A stretch of DNA of 64,000 nt, taken from NCBI RefSeq assembly GCF_013122565.1, contig NZ_CP053258.1; one strand, written 5' to 3'. Shown piece by piece: positions 3,327 through 39,237 of the stretch. Positions within the stretch are counted from its first letter, which is position 1, and each line of letters opens with the position of its first letter. Origin of the DNA: Escherichia coli (lineage in GTDB: Bacteria > Pseudomonadota > Gammaproteobacteria > Enterobacterales > Enterobacteriaceae). The notes beneath the pieces were generated by a model that did no database searches, had not been told where the DNA came from, and saw only the letters and a list, made by a program, of their open reading frames with translations. Position numbers and translations under genes: made by a program.

Positions 3327-3977
3327 AGCTATAGAAATATGCCCGGTGAGATCACGTCATCGGGCATCTCCTTTCGTTCCTCTTGGCTGTATTCACACAT
3401 TTTCCCATTGATTAGGCGATTATTTTTGTGGAGCTATATTTCATATTTATATGAATGGCAGGTTTTTCCGGGAATGACATATCGTGTGGCGGAGGGTTAT
3501 TTAAGGAATGCAATGACATTTATTAGAGGAGCCTGTAACAATAGGCACACGTAAATAAAATTAAAAAGGAGTTGTGTCTTGATTTATATTATATATTGTT
3601 TTTCATTAATTATCCGCAGAAAAAAACAGAAATCGCATTTTTTTGTTGTTGCTTTCTTATTACCCACTTTGTAATGTGGCCCATATGAATTTAACCGTTA
3701 TGCAATAATTACGTTCTGTATTCATAGGGAATTCCTCAAAAAACATTATCCATAGTGATATTTTAAGTTTTACTTAAAATCATTGTTAGTAAAACTAATT
3801 TGAATTCACCGTTCAAAACTCCCACTATCGCCGCACACCAAAGAATATCATCTTATGCAATCTTTTGCGGGAAGCAATGACGCATATTCGATGGTCATCT
3901 CTAAGCCGCTCACTTCAATATTAATCTGAGGTTTTCCGGCGCTTATAATTTAATTATTTATGGTTTAAGGACAAATA

Positions 3978-4544
3978 ATGAGTAAGTTTGTTAAAACTGC
4001 TATTGCAGCGGTGATGGTAATGGGTGCGTTCGCGTCAACTTCTTCCATCGCTGCCGGTAACAACGGTACCGCGCGTTTCTACGGCACCATCGAAGATTCC
4101 CCGTGCTCCATCGTGCCTGACGACCACAAACTGGAAGTTGATATGGGCGATATCGGTTCTGAAACACTGAAAGGCAGTAAATCAACCACCCCGAAAGAGT
4201 TCCAGATCCGCCTGCAGGACTGCGTGTTTGATACTCAGGCCAAGGCTTCGACTGTCTTCACCGGCACCATCTATACTGCGGTCGCCAACAGCAACAACTA
4301 CACCATTTTCAGCACCGAAACCGGTATGCCATTTGAGCATGTCAGCCTGGCGATTGGTGATGAACATGGCGCGGCATACAAAAGCGGTATGCCTATCGAA
4401 CAGGCGCTTACTATAGATTCCAGCACCACGAAAGGTAAACCTAACCAGACGCTGAACTTTAAAGCATGGCTGGTGGGTGAAAGTGAAATGCCGACCCTGG
4501 GGGCATTTGAAGCTAACACCACGTTCCAGATCACTTATCTCTGA
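3978..4544 (+). CDS. yfcV: Fimbrial major subunit of the Yfc chaperone-usher system
   Basis: 188-aa ORF with signal peptide and fimbrial-subunit features; first gene of a 7-gene chaperone-usher cluster; preceded by a 650-bp AT-rich region. Confidence 0.85.
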   Translation: MSKFVKTAIAAVMVMGAFASTSSIAAGNNGTARFYGTIEDSPCSIVPDDHKLEVDMGDIGSETLKGSKSTTPKEFQIRLQDCVFDTQAKASTVFTGTIYTAVANSNNYTIFSTETGMPFEHVSLAIGDEHGAAYKSGMPIEQALTIDSSTTKGKPNQTLNFKAWLVGESEMPTLGAFEANTTFQITYL

Positions 4545-4551
4545 TGTTTCA

Positions 4552-4581
4552 CCCCATGGCGGCAACGTCATGGGGTTTTTT
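4552..4581 (+). terminator. Intra-operon hairpin plus T-tract between yfcV and the usher gene
   Basis: CCCCATG-gcggcaacgt-CATGGGG followed by TTTTTT, just after the yfcV stop. Confidence 0.7.
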
Positions 4582-4613
4582 AATTGATTCTGACGAAATT
4601 ATAATAATCACGG

Positions 4614-7277
4614 ATGGATACGTGTATGCCAGACCATTCTCTTTTCCGTTTACGGGTGCTTCCCTGGTATATTGCGCTGGCAATATCCGGAAGCTATGCC
4701 AGTGCCTGGGCTGATGATGATATTCAGTTTGATTCCCGTTTTCTGGAATTAAAAGGCGACGCAAAAGTCGATCTGAAACGTTTTTCCAGTCAGGGCTATG
4801 TCGAGCCGGGTAAATATAATTTACAGGTTCAGGTAAATAAGCAGCCGCTCCCGGATGAGTACGATATTTTCTGGTATGCCTCTGAAAAAGATGCCGGTAA
4901 AAGTTATGCCTGCCTGACGCCCACGCTGCTCGCCCAGTTTGGTCTGAAAGAGGAGATTGTAAAAAATCTGCAATGGTCCCGCAACGGCGAATGCCTCGCG
5001 CCAGGTCAGCTGGAAGGGACAGAGATTAAGGCTGATTTAAGCCAGTCCGCGTTATTAATCTCCCTGCCACAGGCCTATCTGGAATACAGCGATATGGACT
5101 GGGACCCGCCTTCCCGCTGGGACGATGGTATTCCCGGCCTGATTGCTGACTACAGCATTAACGCCCAGACCCGCCACGATGAGCAGAGCGGCGATGACAG
5201 TAACGACATCAGCGGTAACGGCACGGTAGGGGTAAACCTCGGCCCGTGGCGTCTGCGCGCCGACTGGCAGACGGACTACCAGCATACCCGCAGCGACGAT
5301 GACGATGAATACAGCGACAGTGACGGCAACAGCACACAAAGAAACTGGGAGTGGAGCCGCTACTACGCCTGGCGCGCCCTGCCGTCATTAAAAGCCAAAC
5401 TTGCGCTCGGCGAAGATTACCTCAACTCCGATATTTTCGACGGCTTTAACTATGTCGGCGGCAGCGTCAGCACTGAAGACCAGATGTTACCGCCAAATAT
5501 GCGCGGCTACGCCCCCGATATTTCCGGGGTGGCGCACACCACGGCGAAAGTGACCGTCAGCCAGATGGGCCGCGTCATTTACGAAACCCAGGTTCCGGCG
5601 GGGCCGTTCCGCATTCAGGATTTGGGCGATTCCATCTCCGGTACGCTGCATGTGCGTATTGAAGAGCAGAACGGTCAGGTGCAGGAATATGATATCAGCA
5701 CCGCGTCGATGCCGTTCCTGACCCGTCAGGGCCAGGTGCGCTATAAAGTGATGATGGGCCGCCCGCAGGAGTGGGGGCACGATATTGCCGGCGGATTTTT
5801 CTCCGGCGGTGAAGCCTCCTGGGGGATTGCCAACGGCTGGTCGCTCTACGGCGGCGCGCTGGCGGATGAAAACTATCAGTCGGCGGCCATTGGCGTCGGG
5901 CGTGACCTGTCAATTCTTGGTGCGATGGCCTTTGACGTCACGCACTCACATGTCCGCCTGGATGACAACACTGCCTACGACAATCGTACCCTGGACGGTA
6001 ACTCGTTCCGCGTGAGCTATGCCAAAGACTTTGACGAACTCGACAGCCGCGTTACCTTCGCCGGATACCGCTTCTCTGAAAAAAACTTCATGACCATGAG
6101 CGAATATCTGGATGCGAAAGATGCGGACATGGTGCGCTCCGGCAACGATAAAGAGATGTACACGGTTACCTACAACCAGAACTTCCGGGATGCCGCGGTT
6201 TCTGTCTATCTCAACTACACCCACCGCACCTACTGGGACCGGCCGGAACAGACCAACTACAACGTGATGATGTCCCACTATTTCAATATGGGCAGCATCC
6301 GCAACATGAGCGTGTCCCTGACCGGTTACCGCTACGAATACGACAAAAGCACCGACAAAGGGATGTATATCTCGCTGAGTATGCCGTGGGGCGACAGCAG
6401 TACCGTCAGCTATAACGGCAACTACGGCAGCGGCTCAGACTCCAGCCAGGTCGGTTATTTCAGCCGTATCGACGATGCCTCGCATTACCAGATTAACGTC
6501 GGCACCAGCGAAAACCACGGCAGCGTGGATGGCTACTACAGCCATGACGGCTCGCTGGCGCAGGTGGATTTAAGTGCCAACTACCATGAAGGCGAGTATC
6601 AGTCTGCCGGGATTTCACTGCAGGGCGGCGCGACGCTGACCGCGCACGGCGGGGCGCTGCACCGCACGCAATCGCCCGGCGGGACACGTCTGCTGATTGA
6701 CGCTGACGGCGTGTCCGGCGTGCCGGTGGAAGGTAACGGTTCGCCGGTTTACACCAACATGTTTGGTAAAGCGGTCGTGGCGGATGTCAACAACTACTAC
6801 CGTAACCAGGCCTATATCGACCTGACTAAACTGCCGGAAAACGCCGAAGCCACCCAGTCGGTGGTGCAGGCCACGCTGACCGAGGGCGCGATTGGCTACC
6901 GCCAGTTTGCAGTGATCAGCGGGCAGAAAGCGATGGCGGTACTGCGCCTGAGCGACGGCAGCCATCCGCCGTTTGGTGCGGAAGTGAAAAACAGCGACGA
7001 GCAGCAGGTGGGGCTGGTTGACGATGACGGCAACGTCTATCTGGCCGGGGTGAAACCGGGCGAGCGGATGACGGTGTCGTGGAACGGTGAGACACACTGT
7101 GACATCGCGCTGCCGGACCCGTTACCGGCCGATCTGTTCAACGGCCTGTTGCTGCCCTGCCAGAACCGGGGTGCCGTCGCGCCTGCCACCTCGCCGGACG
7201 TCAAACCGGTGATTCAGGAGCAGACGCAGCAGGTGACACCAACGGAACCCCCGACTTCAATTTCAGTAAACCAGTAA
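4614..7277 (+). CDS. yfcU: Outer-membrane fimbrial usher, intact (true start may be the Met at 4626)
   Basis: 887-aa uninterrupted ORF with usher-like N-terminal signal and C-terminal domain. Confidence 0.85.
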   Translation: MDTCMPDHSLFRLRVLPWYIALAISGSYASAWADDDIQFDSRFLELKGDAKVDLKRFSSQGYVEPGKYNLQVQVNKQPLPDEYDIFWYASEKDAGKSYACLTPTLLAQFGLKEEIVKNLQWSRNGECLAPGQLEGTEIKADLSQSALLISLPQAYLEYSDMDWDPPSRWDDGIPGLIADYSINAQTRHDEQSGDDSNDISGNGTVGVNLGPWRLRADWQTDYQHTRSDDDDEYSDSDGNSTQRNWEWSRYYAWRALPSLKAKLALGEDYLNSDIFDGFNYVGGSVSTEDQMLPPNMRGYAPDISGVAHTTAKVTVSQMGRVIYETQVPAGPFRIQDLGDSISGTLHVRIEEQNGQVQEYDISTASMPFLTRQGQVRYKVMMGRPQEWGHDIAGGFFSGGEASWGIANGWSLYGGALADENYQSAAIGVGRDLSILGAMAFDVTHSHVRLDDNTAYDNRTLDGNSFRVSYAKDFDELDSRVTFAGYRFSEKNFMTMSEYLDAKDADMVRSGNDKEMYTVTYNQNFRDAAVSVYLNYTHRTYWDRPEQTNYNVMMSHYFNMGSIRNMSVSLTGYRYEYDKSTDKGMYISLSMPWGDSSTVSYNGNYGSGSDSSQVGYFSRIDDASHYQINVGTSENHGSVDGYYSHDGSLAQVDLSANYHEGEYQSAGISLQGGATLTAHGGALHRTQSPGGTRLLIDADGVSGVPVEGNGSPVYTNMFGKAVVADVNNYYRNQAYIDLTKLPENAEATQSVVQATLTEGAIGYRQFAVISGQKAMAVLRLSDGSHPPFGAEVKNSDEQQVGLVDDDGNVYLAGVKPGERMTVSWNGETHCDIALPDPLPADLFNGLLLPCQNRGAVAPATSPDVKPVIQEQTQQVTPTEPPTSISVNQ

Positions 7278-7296
7278 CGTGATTAAGGAATGATCC

Positions 7297-8040
7297 ATGT
7301 TTAATCTGACTAACACTGCAAAAACCGTTATCCCTGCGCTGGCGCTGCTGGCCAGTTTCTCCAGCCACGCCTCGGTGACACCCGACAGGACGCGGCTGGT
7401 GTTTAACGAAAGCGACAAATCCATCAGCGTCACGCTGCGCAATAATGACCCCAAACTGCCCTATCTGGCGCAGAGCTGGATAGAGGATGCAAAGGGCAAC
7501 AAAATCAGCTCGCCGCTGGCGGTGCTGCCGCCGGTACAGCGCATCGATGCGATGATGAACGGCCAGGTGAAGGTGCAGGGGCTGCCGGATATCAACAAAC
7601 TGCCAGCCGACCGCGAGAGCGTGTTCTACTTTAACGTGCGCGAGATCCCGCCGAAATCAAACAAACCGAACACGCTGCAGATTGCGCTGCAGACGCGCAT
7701 CAAGCTGTTCTGGCGACCGAAGGCGCTGGAAAACGTCAGCATGAAAAACCCGTGGCAGCACAAGGTGACGCTCACCCGCAACGGCCAGGATTTTACCGTC
7801 AATAACCCGACGCCGTACTACGTGATCATCAGCAACGCCAGCGCGAAAAAAGGCGGCAACCCGCCGGCGGGATTCACACCGCTGATGCTGGAGCCGAAAA
7901 CCTCCGCCCCGCTGAATGCGAAGATGGACAGCGTGCCGGTGCTGACCTATATCAACGACTACGGCGCGCGGATGCCGCTGTACTTCAAATGCACCGCCAA
8001 CAACTGCCAGGTGGATGAAGAGCAGAGCCGCAAAGGCTGA
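7297..8040 (+). CDS. yfcS: Periplasmic fimbrial chaperone (PapD-like)
   Basis: 247-aa ORF with signal peptide and pilus-chaperone N-terminal motif (RLVFNESDKSISVTLRNN). Confidence 0.85.
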   Translation: MFNLTNTAKTVIPALALLASFSSHASVTPDRTRLVFNESDKSISVTLRNNDPKLPYLAQSWIEDAKGNKISSPLAVLPPVQRIDAMMNGQVKVQGLPDINKLPADRESVFYFNVREIPPKSNKPNTLQIALQTRIKLFWRPKALENVSMKNPWQHKVTLTRNGQDFTVNNPTPYYVIISNASAKKGGNPPAGFTPLMLEPKTSAPLNAKMDSVPVLTYINDYGARMPLYFKCTANNCQVDEEQSRKG

Positions 8041-15452: not shown

Positions 15453-15731
15453 ATGATCGCGGAGTTTGAATCACGCATTCTGGCATTAATCGACGGTATG
15501 GTTGACCATGCCAGTGATGATGAGTTGTTTGCCAGTGGGTATTTGCGTGGCCACCTGACATTAGCCATCGCAGAACTGGAAAGTGGTGATGACCACTCCG
15601 CTCAGGCGGTGCATACGACCGTTAGCCAGAGTCTGGAAAAAGCCATTGGTGCTGGTGAATTGTCGCCGCGTGACCAGGCGCTGGTGACCGATATGTGGGA
15701 AAACCTGTTTCAGCAGGCGTCACAGCAGTAA
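15453..15731 (+). CDS. yfcL: Small conserved protein YfcL
   Basis: 92-aa [19 protein letters not shown]...; last core gene before the IS insertion. Confidence 0.8.
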
Positions 15732-15739
15732 GTTGCGGT

Positions 15740-15789
<50 letters not shown>

Positions 15790-15887
15790 CACGTCACACG
15801 TAGATACTGTTATGGCCTGCAAGTTTTTTTCTACCCCGGTTTCCCGGATTGCAGGCATGCCAGATACAGCGCCGTCAGGCGCTGTTG

Positions 15888-17111
<1,224 letters not shown>

Positions 17112-17129
17112 AAACACTGCGAGAGCAGA

Positions 17130-19202
<2,073 letters not shown>

Positions 19203-36435: not shown

Positions 36436-37209
36436 ATGTCCGAGAATAAATTAAACGTTATCGATTTGCACAAACGCTACGGCGAACATGAAGTGCTGAA
36501 AGGGGTATCACTGCAAGCGAATGCCGGAGATGTAATAAGCATCATCGGATCGTCGGGATCGGGGAAAAGTACCTTTCTGCGCTGCATTAACTTCCTCGAA
36601 AAACCGAGTGAAGGGTCGATCGTGGTCAATGGCCAGACGATCAATCTGGTGCGCGACAAAGACGGTCAACTCAAAGTCGCCGATAAAAATCAGCTGCGCT
36701 TACTGCGCACACGCCTGACGATGGTATTCCAGCACTTCAATCTCTGGAGCCATATGACGGTGCTGGAAAACGTCATGGAAGCGCCGATTCAGGTGTTGGG
36801 CCTGAGCAAGCAGGAAGCGCGCGAGCGGGCGGTGAAGTATCTGGCAAAAGTCGGGATAGACGAACGTGCACAGGGGAAATATCCGGTGCATCTTTCCGGC
36901 GGTCAGCAACAGCGTGTTTCTATCGCGCGGGCGCTGGCGATGGAACCGGAAGTTTTACTGTTTGATGAACCTACCTCGGCGCTCGATCCTGAACTGGTAG
37001 GCGAAGTGTTGCGCATTATGCAGCAACTGGCAGAAGAGGGGAAAACCATGGTGGTAGTGACCCACGAAATGGGCTTTGCTCGCCATGTTTCTACTCACGT
37101 CATTTTCCTCCATCAGGGGAAAATAGAAGAAGAGGGCGCGCCGGAGCAGTTATTTGGCAACCCGCAAAGTCCTCGTCTGCAACAGTTCCTTAAAGGTTCG
37201 CTGAAATAA
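36436..37209 (+). CDS. hisP: Histidine/LAO ABC transporter ATP-binding subunit
   Basis: 257-aa ORF with Walker [10 protein letters not shown] and ABC signature LSGGQQQR. Confidence 0.9.
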
Positions 37210-37214
37210 TTTCC

Positions 37215-37246
37215 TCTCCGGTGGCTAACGCTGCCGGAGTATTTTC
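37215..37246 (+). terminator. Hairpin plus T-rich tract after hisP
   Basis: CTCCGG...CCGGAG followed by TATTTT. Confidence 0.5.
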
Positions 37247-37405
37247 AAGGGGAATTTGCGAGTCCGCTTCCGCTGAAATGTAAAAGTTGCAGTCCGCTAA
37301 AAATAGTTCTGAATTCGCTGTCCAAAGATAAAAACTGACTGCTGCATTGGGTGTAAATCGTGGTTATTGTCGCGTCATCTTAAATTTGAGGGGTGACGGA
37401 ACGCC

Positions 37406-38296
37406 ATGACAATATCGACAACTTCCACGCCGCATGATGCGGTATTTAAATCTTTTTTACGCCATCCAGACACCGCGCGGGATTTTATTGATATTCATCT
37501 TCCCGCGCCGCTGCGCAAACTGTGTGATTTAACAACGCTTAAACTGGAACCAAACAGTTTTATTGATGAAGACCTGCGGCAATATTATTCCGACCTCTTG
37601 TGGTCTGTGAAAACGCAGGAGGGAGCGGGTTATATTTATGTAGTGATAGAGCACCAAAGTAAGCCGGAAGAATTAATGGCTTTTCGCATGATGCGCTATT
37701 CCATTGCGGCGATGCAAAACCATCTTGATGCAGGCTATAAAGAGCTTCCATTGGTGATCCCGATGCTGTTTTATCATGGTTGCAGAAGCCCTTATCCATA
37801 TTCACTCTGCTGGCTTGATGAATTTGCCGAGCCTGCGATTGCCCGCAAAATTTATTCATCGGCTTTTCCGCTGGTGGATATTACCGTGGTGCCGGATGAC
37901 GAGATTATGCAACATCGCAAAATGGCGCTGTTGGAGTTAATTCAGAAACATATTCGTCAGCGCGATCTGTTGGGATTAGTCGACCAAATTGTTTCGCTGC
38001 TAGTTACAGGGAACACTAATGACAGACAGCTAAAAGCCCTGTTTAATTACGTATTACAAACGGGGGATGCCCAGCGTTTCCGTGCATTTATTGGTGAGAT
38101 AGCGGAACGCGCACCACAAGAAAAGGAGAAACTGATGACCATTGCTGACAGATTACGTGAAGAAGGCGCAATGCAGGGCAAACACGAAGAAGCCCTGCGT
38201 ATTGCTCAGGAGATGCTGGAAAAAGGATTTGACTACGAAGTCATCCTGACGCTGACCCGACTTTCGCCAGACGATCTTATCGCGCAAAGCCACTAA
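37406..38296 (+). CDS. rpnB: Recombination-promoting nuclease RpnB (YhgA / transposase_31-like)
   Basis: 296-aa [21 protein letters not shown]...; recognised as YfcI/RpnB. Confidence 0.8.
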
Positions 38297-38343
38297 TCCT
38301 GTAACACCGGGAGTTAACTGGCGGATGTTTGCAGTAAACCACA

Positions 38344-39237
38344 TCAGCGAACGACATCCGCCAGCGCCTCTTCTAAATCGTACCAGCGAAACGCAAAACC
38401 CGCTTCTTCCAGCCGTTTAGGCAGCGCGCGTTGTCCACCTAATACCAGTACTGAAGATTCGCCCATTAACAGCCGAATGGCGGTTGCGGGGACGCGCAAA
38501 ATAGCCGGGCGATGCAGCGCATGACCGAGCGCATGGGCAAATTGTTCATGGCGTATCGGGTAGGGCGAAACCATATTAAATGGCCCGCGCAGCTCGTTAT
38601 CCAGCAGCCAGAGAATGCCGTTGACCATATCATCAATATGAATCCAGGCCAGATACTGCCGACCGGAACCAATCGGCCCGCCCAGGCCAAGACGAAACGG
38701 CGGCAGCATTTTACCGAGAATACCACCGTCTGGTGCCAGCACTACGCCGGTACGCAGCAGGCACACTCGCGTTTTGTCACTTTGTGCCCGACAGGCAATT
38801 TCTTCCCAGCGGGCGCAGAGTTTATGGGTAAATTCGTTATGCGGCGGTTCCTCTTCGGTAACCACCACTTCACCTAAGTCGCCATAAAAGCCCGTTGCCG
38901 AGCCGGAAATGAGTACCGACGGTGGCGTGTCGCTGGCATTAATCAAATCGACCAGTTTTTGCGTGATATTCCAGCGGCTTTGGCAGAGACGCTCTTTTTG
39001 CTCGTGAGTCCAGCGTTTATCAGCAATCGGTTCTCCGGCCAGGTTGATTACCGCATCAACGCCGTTGAGGTTGCTTTGATCGGCAAGCCCTTGCCATAGT
39101 GTCACCTGCGGCCCGAGCACGGAACTGGCTTTCTGCGGGTTACGCGTCACTACCGTGATTTTATGGCCCAGATCCAGCAAACGCGGAATCAAATGGCGAC
39201 CAATTAATCCCGTCCCTCCGGTGATCACTATGTTCAT
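38344..39237 (-). CDS. yfcH: NAD-dependent epimerase/dehydratase family protein
   Basis: 297-aa ORF with N-terminal GGTGLIG Rossmann motif. Confidence 0.8.

Follow-up and report, generated by a model that had tools for sequence, protein, structure and literature searches.

The closest described relatives of the gene considered here, rpnB (yfcI) at positions 37406-38296 of a 64,000-nucleotide stretch of Escherichia coli DNA (contig NZ_CP053258.1; hereafter the window), are the Rpn nucleases of E. coli K-12 MG1655 and their plasmid-borne kin. RpnA (YhgA) is the biochemically and structurally characterised exemplar of the family (RpnA-S crystal structure 7th0). In vitro it cleaves DNA in a largely non-specific, Mg2+-dependent and Ca2+-stimulated manner; with any of the substitutions D11A, D63A, E82A or Q84K, recombination, toxicity and SOS induction are lost; Q84A and R94A separate these phenotypes from one another, and D165A, in a PDDE motif, is hyperactive in vitro (Kingston et al., 2017; PMC5350276). 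Overexpressed K-12 RpnB (b2305) is toxic and elicits an early SOS response; in a conjugal assay it increases RecA-independent recombination 19-fold (PMC5350276).

Later work described rpn genes as gene-within-gene toxin-antitoxin modules and argued against their being transposases, the product RpnS being identical to the C-terminal tail of RpnL (Zhong et al., 2023; PMC10400941). Cleavage by RpnA is blocked by its small protein, and for RpnA an L-S complex and its dissociation at high pH are described (PMC10400941). For K-12 RpnB-S the evidence consists of a ribosome-profiling signal and immunoblots of an SPA (sequential peptide affinity) tag; mutating the internal start of K-12 rpnB strengthens growth inhibition, and RpnB-induced SOS is suppressed by RpnB-S and not by RpnA-S, the antitoxins of RpnA and RpnB giving no cross-protection (PMC10400941). 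RpnP2, from a plasmid of E. coli ECOR13, which we liken to RpnB by description, shares the family and the gene-within-gene organisation; it differs in being plasmid-encoded and in that, alone among Rpn proteins, it has been shown to act against phages, with protection measured against T-even phages (PMC10400941).

The window very probably contains the chromosomal rpnB in its usual place, encoding a nuclease toxin and an internal antitoxin from one reading frame. This explanation draws directly on the open reading frame, the domain, the residues, the fold, the internal Shine-Dalgarno sequence and ATG, a tail folded like RpnA-S, the synteny, the distribution of alleles and the lack of insertion sequence (IS) ends. 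Its principal features are these:

37406-38296, plus strand: rpnB (yfcI) coding sequence, an ATG-to-TAA open reading frame; product RpnB-L, 296 amino acids and stop
37427-38032, plus strand: Transposase_31 (YhgA-like) domain, residues 8-209, by Pfam match
37430-37774, plus strand: predicted PD-(D/E)XK nuclease core, residues 9-123 (helices 9-18 and 21-31; strands 40-47, 64-70 and 76-84; helix 91-108; strand 116-123), bearing D11, D63, E82, Q84 and R94
38123-38128, plus strand: internal Shine-Dalgarno sequence AAGGAG, 6 nucleotides ahead of the internal ATG
38135-38296, plus strand: rpnB-S, an in-frame internal open reading frame from Met244, 53 amino acids and stop; the antitoxin/oligomerisation domain, equal to the C-terminus of RpnB-L

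The original prediction, made from sequence before this analysis, had called 37406-38296 an RpnB-type nuclease gene, and in this it was correct: the open reading frame listing of the window gives an intact frame of 296 codons with ATG start and TAA stop at exactly this place, flanked by hisP and yfcH, and its product is 96% identical (285/296 residues) to K-12 RpnB and 67% identical to K-12 RpnA. The Transposase_31 domain that it had proposed searching for is present, with Pfam PF04754 (YhgA-like) covering residues 8-209 over profile positions 1-202 of 203 (E=2.1e-91; 305 bits, cutoff 21); TIGR01784, 'Rpn family recombination-promoting nuclease/putative transposase', likewise matches at 190 bits (cutoff 52). 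Because the NCBIfam equivalog model for RpnA gives the protein a score of 469, under the cutoff of 583, it is not RpnA. Judged by its position between hisP and yfcH and by its highest identity being to K-12 RpnB, in a direct comparison with RpnB and RpnA, the feature is the RpnB orthologue. The RefSeq RpnB of E. coli GN06156 agrees with the protein at every residue (100%), and 243 contigs publicly carry exactly this sequence under the name 'recombination-promoting nuclease RpnB [Escherichia coli]'; RefSeq annotates the matching place as rpnB in thousands of E. coli genomes. In a set of 1.84 billion clusters at 50% identity, the Rpn family at large numbers 8348 representatives (E<=1e-3). The identification is far beyond chance, and nothing that we found contradicts it.

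Compared with K-12 RpnB, the window gene has the same hisP-rpnB-yfcH locus, length, catalytic residues and internal Shine-Dalgarno sequence with ATG; the differences are two conservative substitutions in the nuclease domain (V74A and L118I) and a 12-codon patch (residues 272-283) in which 9 residues are replaced, affecting helix 2 and the last part of helix 1 in the C-terminal domain that both products share. RpnA has the same numbering at D11, D63, E82, Q84, R94, D165, K240, E241 and M244, and differs in its locus, feoC-rpnA-bioH, and in helix 1 of its S domain, which is shorter by 8 residues.

Loss of the conserved nuclease residues would have spoken against this identification, as the original prediction had noted, and all six residues validated in RpnA (D11, D63, E82, Q84, R94 and D165) are invariant and identically numbered in the alignment of window RpnB with RpnA. 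Across 73 full-length homologues of 30-69% identity, D11 and D63 are each kept in 71, E82 in 70, Q84 in 61 and R94 in 63. An AlphaFold2 model built from the alignment of these homologues is confident, with a mean predicted local distance difference test (pLDDT) score of 90.9, and has the alpha-beta-beta-beta-alpha-beta core, from helix 21-31 through to strand 116-123, of the PD-(D/E)XK fold that had been suggested as a check; in the model D63 sits where the second strand begins, with E82 and Q84 on the third. Fold searches with the isolated N-terminal domain returned a clean list with nucleases on top; full-length searches were dominated by helical-repeat matches or returned nothing significant, and no solved structure of an Rpn-family nuclease domain turned up in sequence or fold searches. 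As modelled, RpnB is a distant member of the PD-(D/E)XK nuclease superfamily. Outside the Rpn family, the nearest described systems considered are further nucleases of this superfamily, namely NucS, the nuclease domains of AddA/RecB, Cas4, HamA and Shedu.

These residues also bear on whether the gene might be an inactive remnant kept by chance, as could be imagined by analogy with RpnE, which was inert in all assays. We regard this as very improbable, since the reading frame is full-length with every validated residue intact, most nuclease-domain substitutions are synonymous, and the protein shares 96% identity with K-12 RpnB, which is among the two most toxic paralogues (PMC5350276). Outside codons 272-283, the other 284 codons of the gene differ from K-12 by 14 synonymous and 2 conservative non-synonymous codon changes, and we therefore conclude that the nuclease part is under purifying selection.

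The second product of the locus is indicated by the internal start at 38135 (Met244), whose anti-Shine-Dalgarno pairing (-8.7 kcal/mol) is the strongest among all in-frame ATG, GTG and TTG codons. With -8.5 kcal/mol the annotated rpnB start is comparable, yet about 12 nucleotides separate its GAGGGG from the ATG, a less favourable spacing than the 6 nucleotides of the internal site; the difference fits, and is not proof of, the reported higher levels of RpnS than of RpnL. Between window and K-12 there are zero nucleotide differences over 38081-38220, and 65 of the 73 homologues keep Met244, an uncommon degree of conservation for a methionine inside a protein. The C-terminal bundle of window RpnB superposes on RpnA-S at 1.1 Å, and the published 'stop at D29 of RpnBS' (PMC10400941) fits a start at Met244 in the K-12 sequence. 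From the internal Shine-Dalgarno sequence and ATG, the identity with K-12 and the conservation of Met244, we therefore conclude that the 53-residue product is part of this locus. Neither a strict nor a loose consensus scan turned up a convincing sigma-70 promoter for a short transcript upstream of 38135, and public records for this allele give the 53-residue RpnB-S no separate named product.

The conserved internal start and the antitoxin are left unexplained by the view of 2017, in which rpnB is a domesticated transposase whose job is RecA-independent recombination and gene acquisition. That view can call on the 19-fold rise in RecA-independent recombination when RpnB is overexpressed (PMC5350276) and on the name of the Pfam family, Transposase_31. 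However, deletion of rpnA-D left the basal recombination frequency unchanged (PMC5350276), the effect is seen on overexpression only and alongside toxicity and SOS induction, and for rpn genes no evidence of transposition was found, nor is an autonomous transposase with this fold known (PMC10400941). We therefore think it unlikely. The original prediction had likewise described a domesticated, transposase-like nuclease that promotes recombination: the nuclease family stands, 'transposase' is a label and not a result, and the description, being that of 2017, lacks the toxin-antitoxin organisation (PMC10400941).

Returning to a toxin and antitoxin read from one frame, we propose that RpnB-L (296 residues) would cut DNA as a PD-(D/E)XK endonuclease that depends on a divalent metal and has little specificity for sequence, and that its excess would cause DNA damage, SOS induction, cell death and more RecA-independent recombination. 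The strong internal ribosome-binding site and Met244 would yield RpnB-S (53 residues), the three-helix C-terminal domain alone, which would bind the identical domain of RpnB-L and block the nuclease as its cognate antitoxin. Because both are read from the same codons, toxin and antitoxin co-vary automatically, and the tail allele of the window would be one of several common pairing variants. By analogy with the characterised systems, we infer that the window allele would behave like the K-12 allele and that chromosomal RpnB may contribute to phage defence; its likely role would be in defence against phage or in abortive infection, as a module of the toxin-antitoxin type that some trigger releases.

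Several observations weigh against the defence role. PADLOC-DB 2.0 gave no match for rpnB, in a library that may predate the description of the family; the neighbours hisP and yfcH are housekeeping genes and not a defence island; and antiphage protection has been published for plasmid-borne RpnP2 only, and against T-even phages (PMC10400941), so that its extension to RpnB would be by analogy. On these marks RpnB falls short of a recognised defence gene, which weakens the statement that it is a proven one, and not the proposal that it works like RpnP2.

In the population, rpnB is a presence/absence polymorphism. Of 5426 complete E. coli genomes, 4755 have the nuclease domain and the other 671 (12%) lack it, the flanks being found in 5425, and what comes and goes is a discrete segment:

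37316-38317, no strand assigned: rpnB presence/absence segment of 1002 base pairs, made up of rpnB with 90 nucleotides upstream and 21 nucleotides downstream

This discreteness, together with a guanine-plus-cytosine content of about 45-47%, slightly lower than that of the neighbouring genes, might suggest an active or recently active mobile element, and one NCBIfam model (NF007418, 'ISNCY family transposase') and some GenBank records name rpnB accordingly. The NF007418 score of 461 bits is, however, under the cutoff of 583. In the rpnB-less E. coli 2547, the segment is swapped for 27 nucleotides of unrelated filler (ATCTATATTTATTCATCAGCGTTTCCG; positions 1015-1041 of its locus), with no clean excision scar, and comparison of the window with this empty site revealed no inverted ends or duplication at the segment junctions; we therefore reject an IS-like insertion. 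A repeat search of 36900-38800 gave short imperfect pairs only, with no terminal inverted or direct repeats bracketing rpnB. As a candidate terminal repeat, the flanking pair 37196-37215 and 38333-38352 (75% over 20 nucleotides), which lies inside the coding ends of hisP and yfcH, was judged a chance match. The 3' half of the gene is found in one place per genome and the nuclease domain in at most two, with a median of one, always chromosomal and never on a plasmid. The same locus is occupied, by the same tail allele, in proteins named as E. fergusonii, and the gene is therefore old at this species level. In all, rpnB shows none of the marks of an insertion sequence or autonomous transposon (terminal inverted repeats, target duplication, multiple copies), and we give a mobile element almost no credence. 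The original prediction had likewise seen neither repeats around the gene nor evidence of its mobility, and the repeat search, the empty site and the copy number bear it out. The segment pattern agrees with the published gain and loss of rpn genes singly, without IS-like ends and with variable boundaries (PMC10400941).

The placement of rpnB 'next to' an active-looking insertion sequence did not hold up. In a search of the window that covered open reading frames of at least 150 residues, the only insertion sequence identified was a copy of IS621 (IS110 family) at about 15752-17112, some 20.3 kb upstream of rpnB and between yfcL and mnmC. Its transposase frame (15908-16888, minus strand) has DEDD_Tnp_IS110 and Transposase_20 domains, it is flanked on both sides by sequences resembling repetitive extragenic palindromes (sub-threshold Rfam naRNA4 matches at 15720-15787 and 17081-17148), and it occupies the same site in 2 of the 5426 genomes. 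IS621 and rpnB are unrelated.

Variation within rpnB is concentrated in the part that toxin and antitoxin share, at two sites:

38165-38182, plus strand: helix 1 site, residues 254-259, where other E. coli alleles have an extra repeat of 12 nucleotides (4 residues); the window has the short form
38219-38254, plus strand: allelic patch, codons 272-283, taking in helix 2 of the S domain, the turn before it and the last part of helix 1; K-12 counterpart DRGLDRELVMMV

Of the differences from K-12, codons 272-283 account for 9 of 11 at the amino acid level and 15 of 31 at the level of coding nucleotides, leaving 2 and 16, respectively, to the rest of the gene; this indicates, at the level of sequence, a divergent cassette in the shared tail beside a conserved nuclease part. 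Among complete E. coli genomes, the 3' end is window-like (at least 95% identity) in 890, K-12-like (90-95% identity to the window) in 2639 and 80-90% identical in 1224. Sampled members of the last class span 226 nucleotides, compared with 214 in the window query, and have the extra 12 nucleotides (4 residues) in helix 1, where the window reads EEGA----MQGKH against EEGRNDGLILGKR. Across the family, in the 73-homologue alignment, the segment from Met244 to Gly274 has lengths of 22, 26, 30, 34, 38, 42, 46 and 50. These four-residue steps, seen family-wide and within E. coli rpnB, independently reproduce the published four-amino-acid repeat variation (PMC10400941).

A sensitive blastn search with the patch (38200-38275) found it at the rpnB locus only, in one place per genome and on no plasmid; the window type occurs at 95% identity or more in 892 of the 5426 genomes, including strain 042 at 100%. 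Gene conversion from an rpn paralogue or plasmid was considered and rejected, as no donor was found and the patch is at rpnB only. The RpnB of E. fergusonii carries a nearly identical patch (EKGFDHEVILTL), and we therefore regard it as an old allele class and not as a novelty of this genome. One speculative possibility, which we hold to be doubtful, is that residues 272-283 form a separate class of toxin-antitoxin pairing or trigger specificity, independent of the four-residue repeat code, as an old balanced polymorphism of E. coli and E. fergusonii. If this were true, K-12 RpnB-S would not neutralise window RpnB-L, and vice versa.

Homology of the tail (residues 253-285, 38162-38260) to designer pentatricopeptide-repeat proteins was also rejected: the phmmer matches, with summed E-values down to 3e-14 and each single stretch insignificant, arise because a helical-hairpin look-alike is amplified by repeats.

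Some records depart from the usual 3' end. In E. coli CE-O153H30 (locus 3507-7369) and P19_598 (195-2075), rpnB is followed by a gene for a trans-sulfuration enzyme and nhaC instead of yfcH, and RpnB ends in a different stretch of ~10 residues (…SPEELLNQKQ); the altered end and neighbours therefore place a breakpoint, from a rearrangement or an insertion, within the 3' end of rpnB. A deletion in E. coli ST2747 (locus 777-2309) removes the 3' ends of the convergent rpnB and yfcH and fuses the two, which would leave a nuclease domain without its antitoxin/oligomerisation tail. Several records of Shigella dysenteriae and S. boydii hold only C-terminal RpnB fragments with the window-type tail (for example 111 residues with a foreign N-terminus), and rpnB may be truncated in those lineages with the part encoding the S domain surviving.

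Around rpnB the window follows K-12 MG1655, with the order argT-hisJQMP-rpnB-yfcH-folX-yfcG-yfcF-yfcE-yfcD as around b2305; flanking genes were named from Pfam domains and from the RefSeq annotation of orthologous places. Upstream lies hisP, the ATPase of the histidine ABC transporter (36436-37209, plus strand), and downstream the convergent, epimerase-family yfcH (38344-39237, minus strand). After hisP comes one further element:

37216-37249, plus strand: terminator-like hairpin and T-run, with a stem of 10 pairs, 7 of them G-C, then TATTTTCAAG

This hairpin sets rpnB apart from the his transport operon. A long imperfect hairpin at 38318-38372 (CTGGCGGATGT … ACATCCGCCAG) covers the gap between rpnB and yfcH together with the final codons of yfcH, and the base of its left arm coincides exactly with the right edge of the presence/absence segment. 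Rfam yielded no match (E<=1) across 36900-38800. Identity of the window to almost every one of the 5426 genomes is 95-99% over 22 kb, with 98.7% for the best of the matches listed.

As a discovery the locus is of little importance, its exact protein being already public under the right name: the gene, the family, the nuclease chemistry and the internal antitoxin are all published, and rpnB is known in every respect testable here. The sole point of some novelty, and a modest question, is whether the tail allele alters the specificity of toxin-antitoxin pairing. For annotation, the label 'transposase' is misleading for rpnB, and a reading of one gene and one product overlooks the 53-residue RpnB-S. 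The survey of the locus offers a compact view of rpnB variation in E. coli, in presence and absence (12%), in repeat number and in tail alleles, and could guide work on cross-neutralisation.
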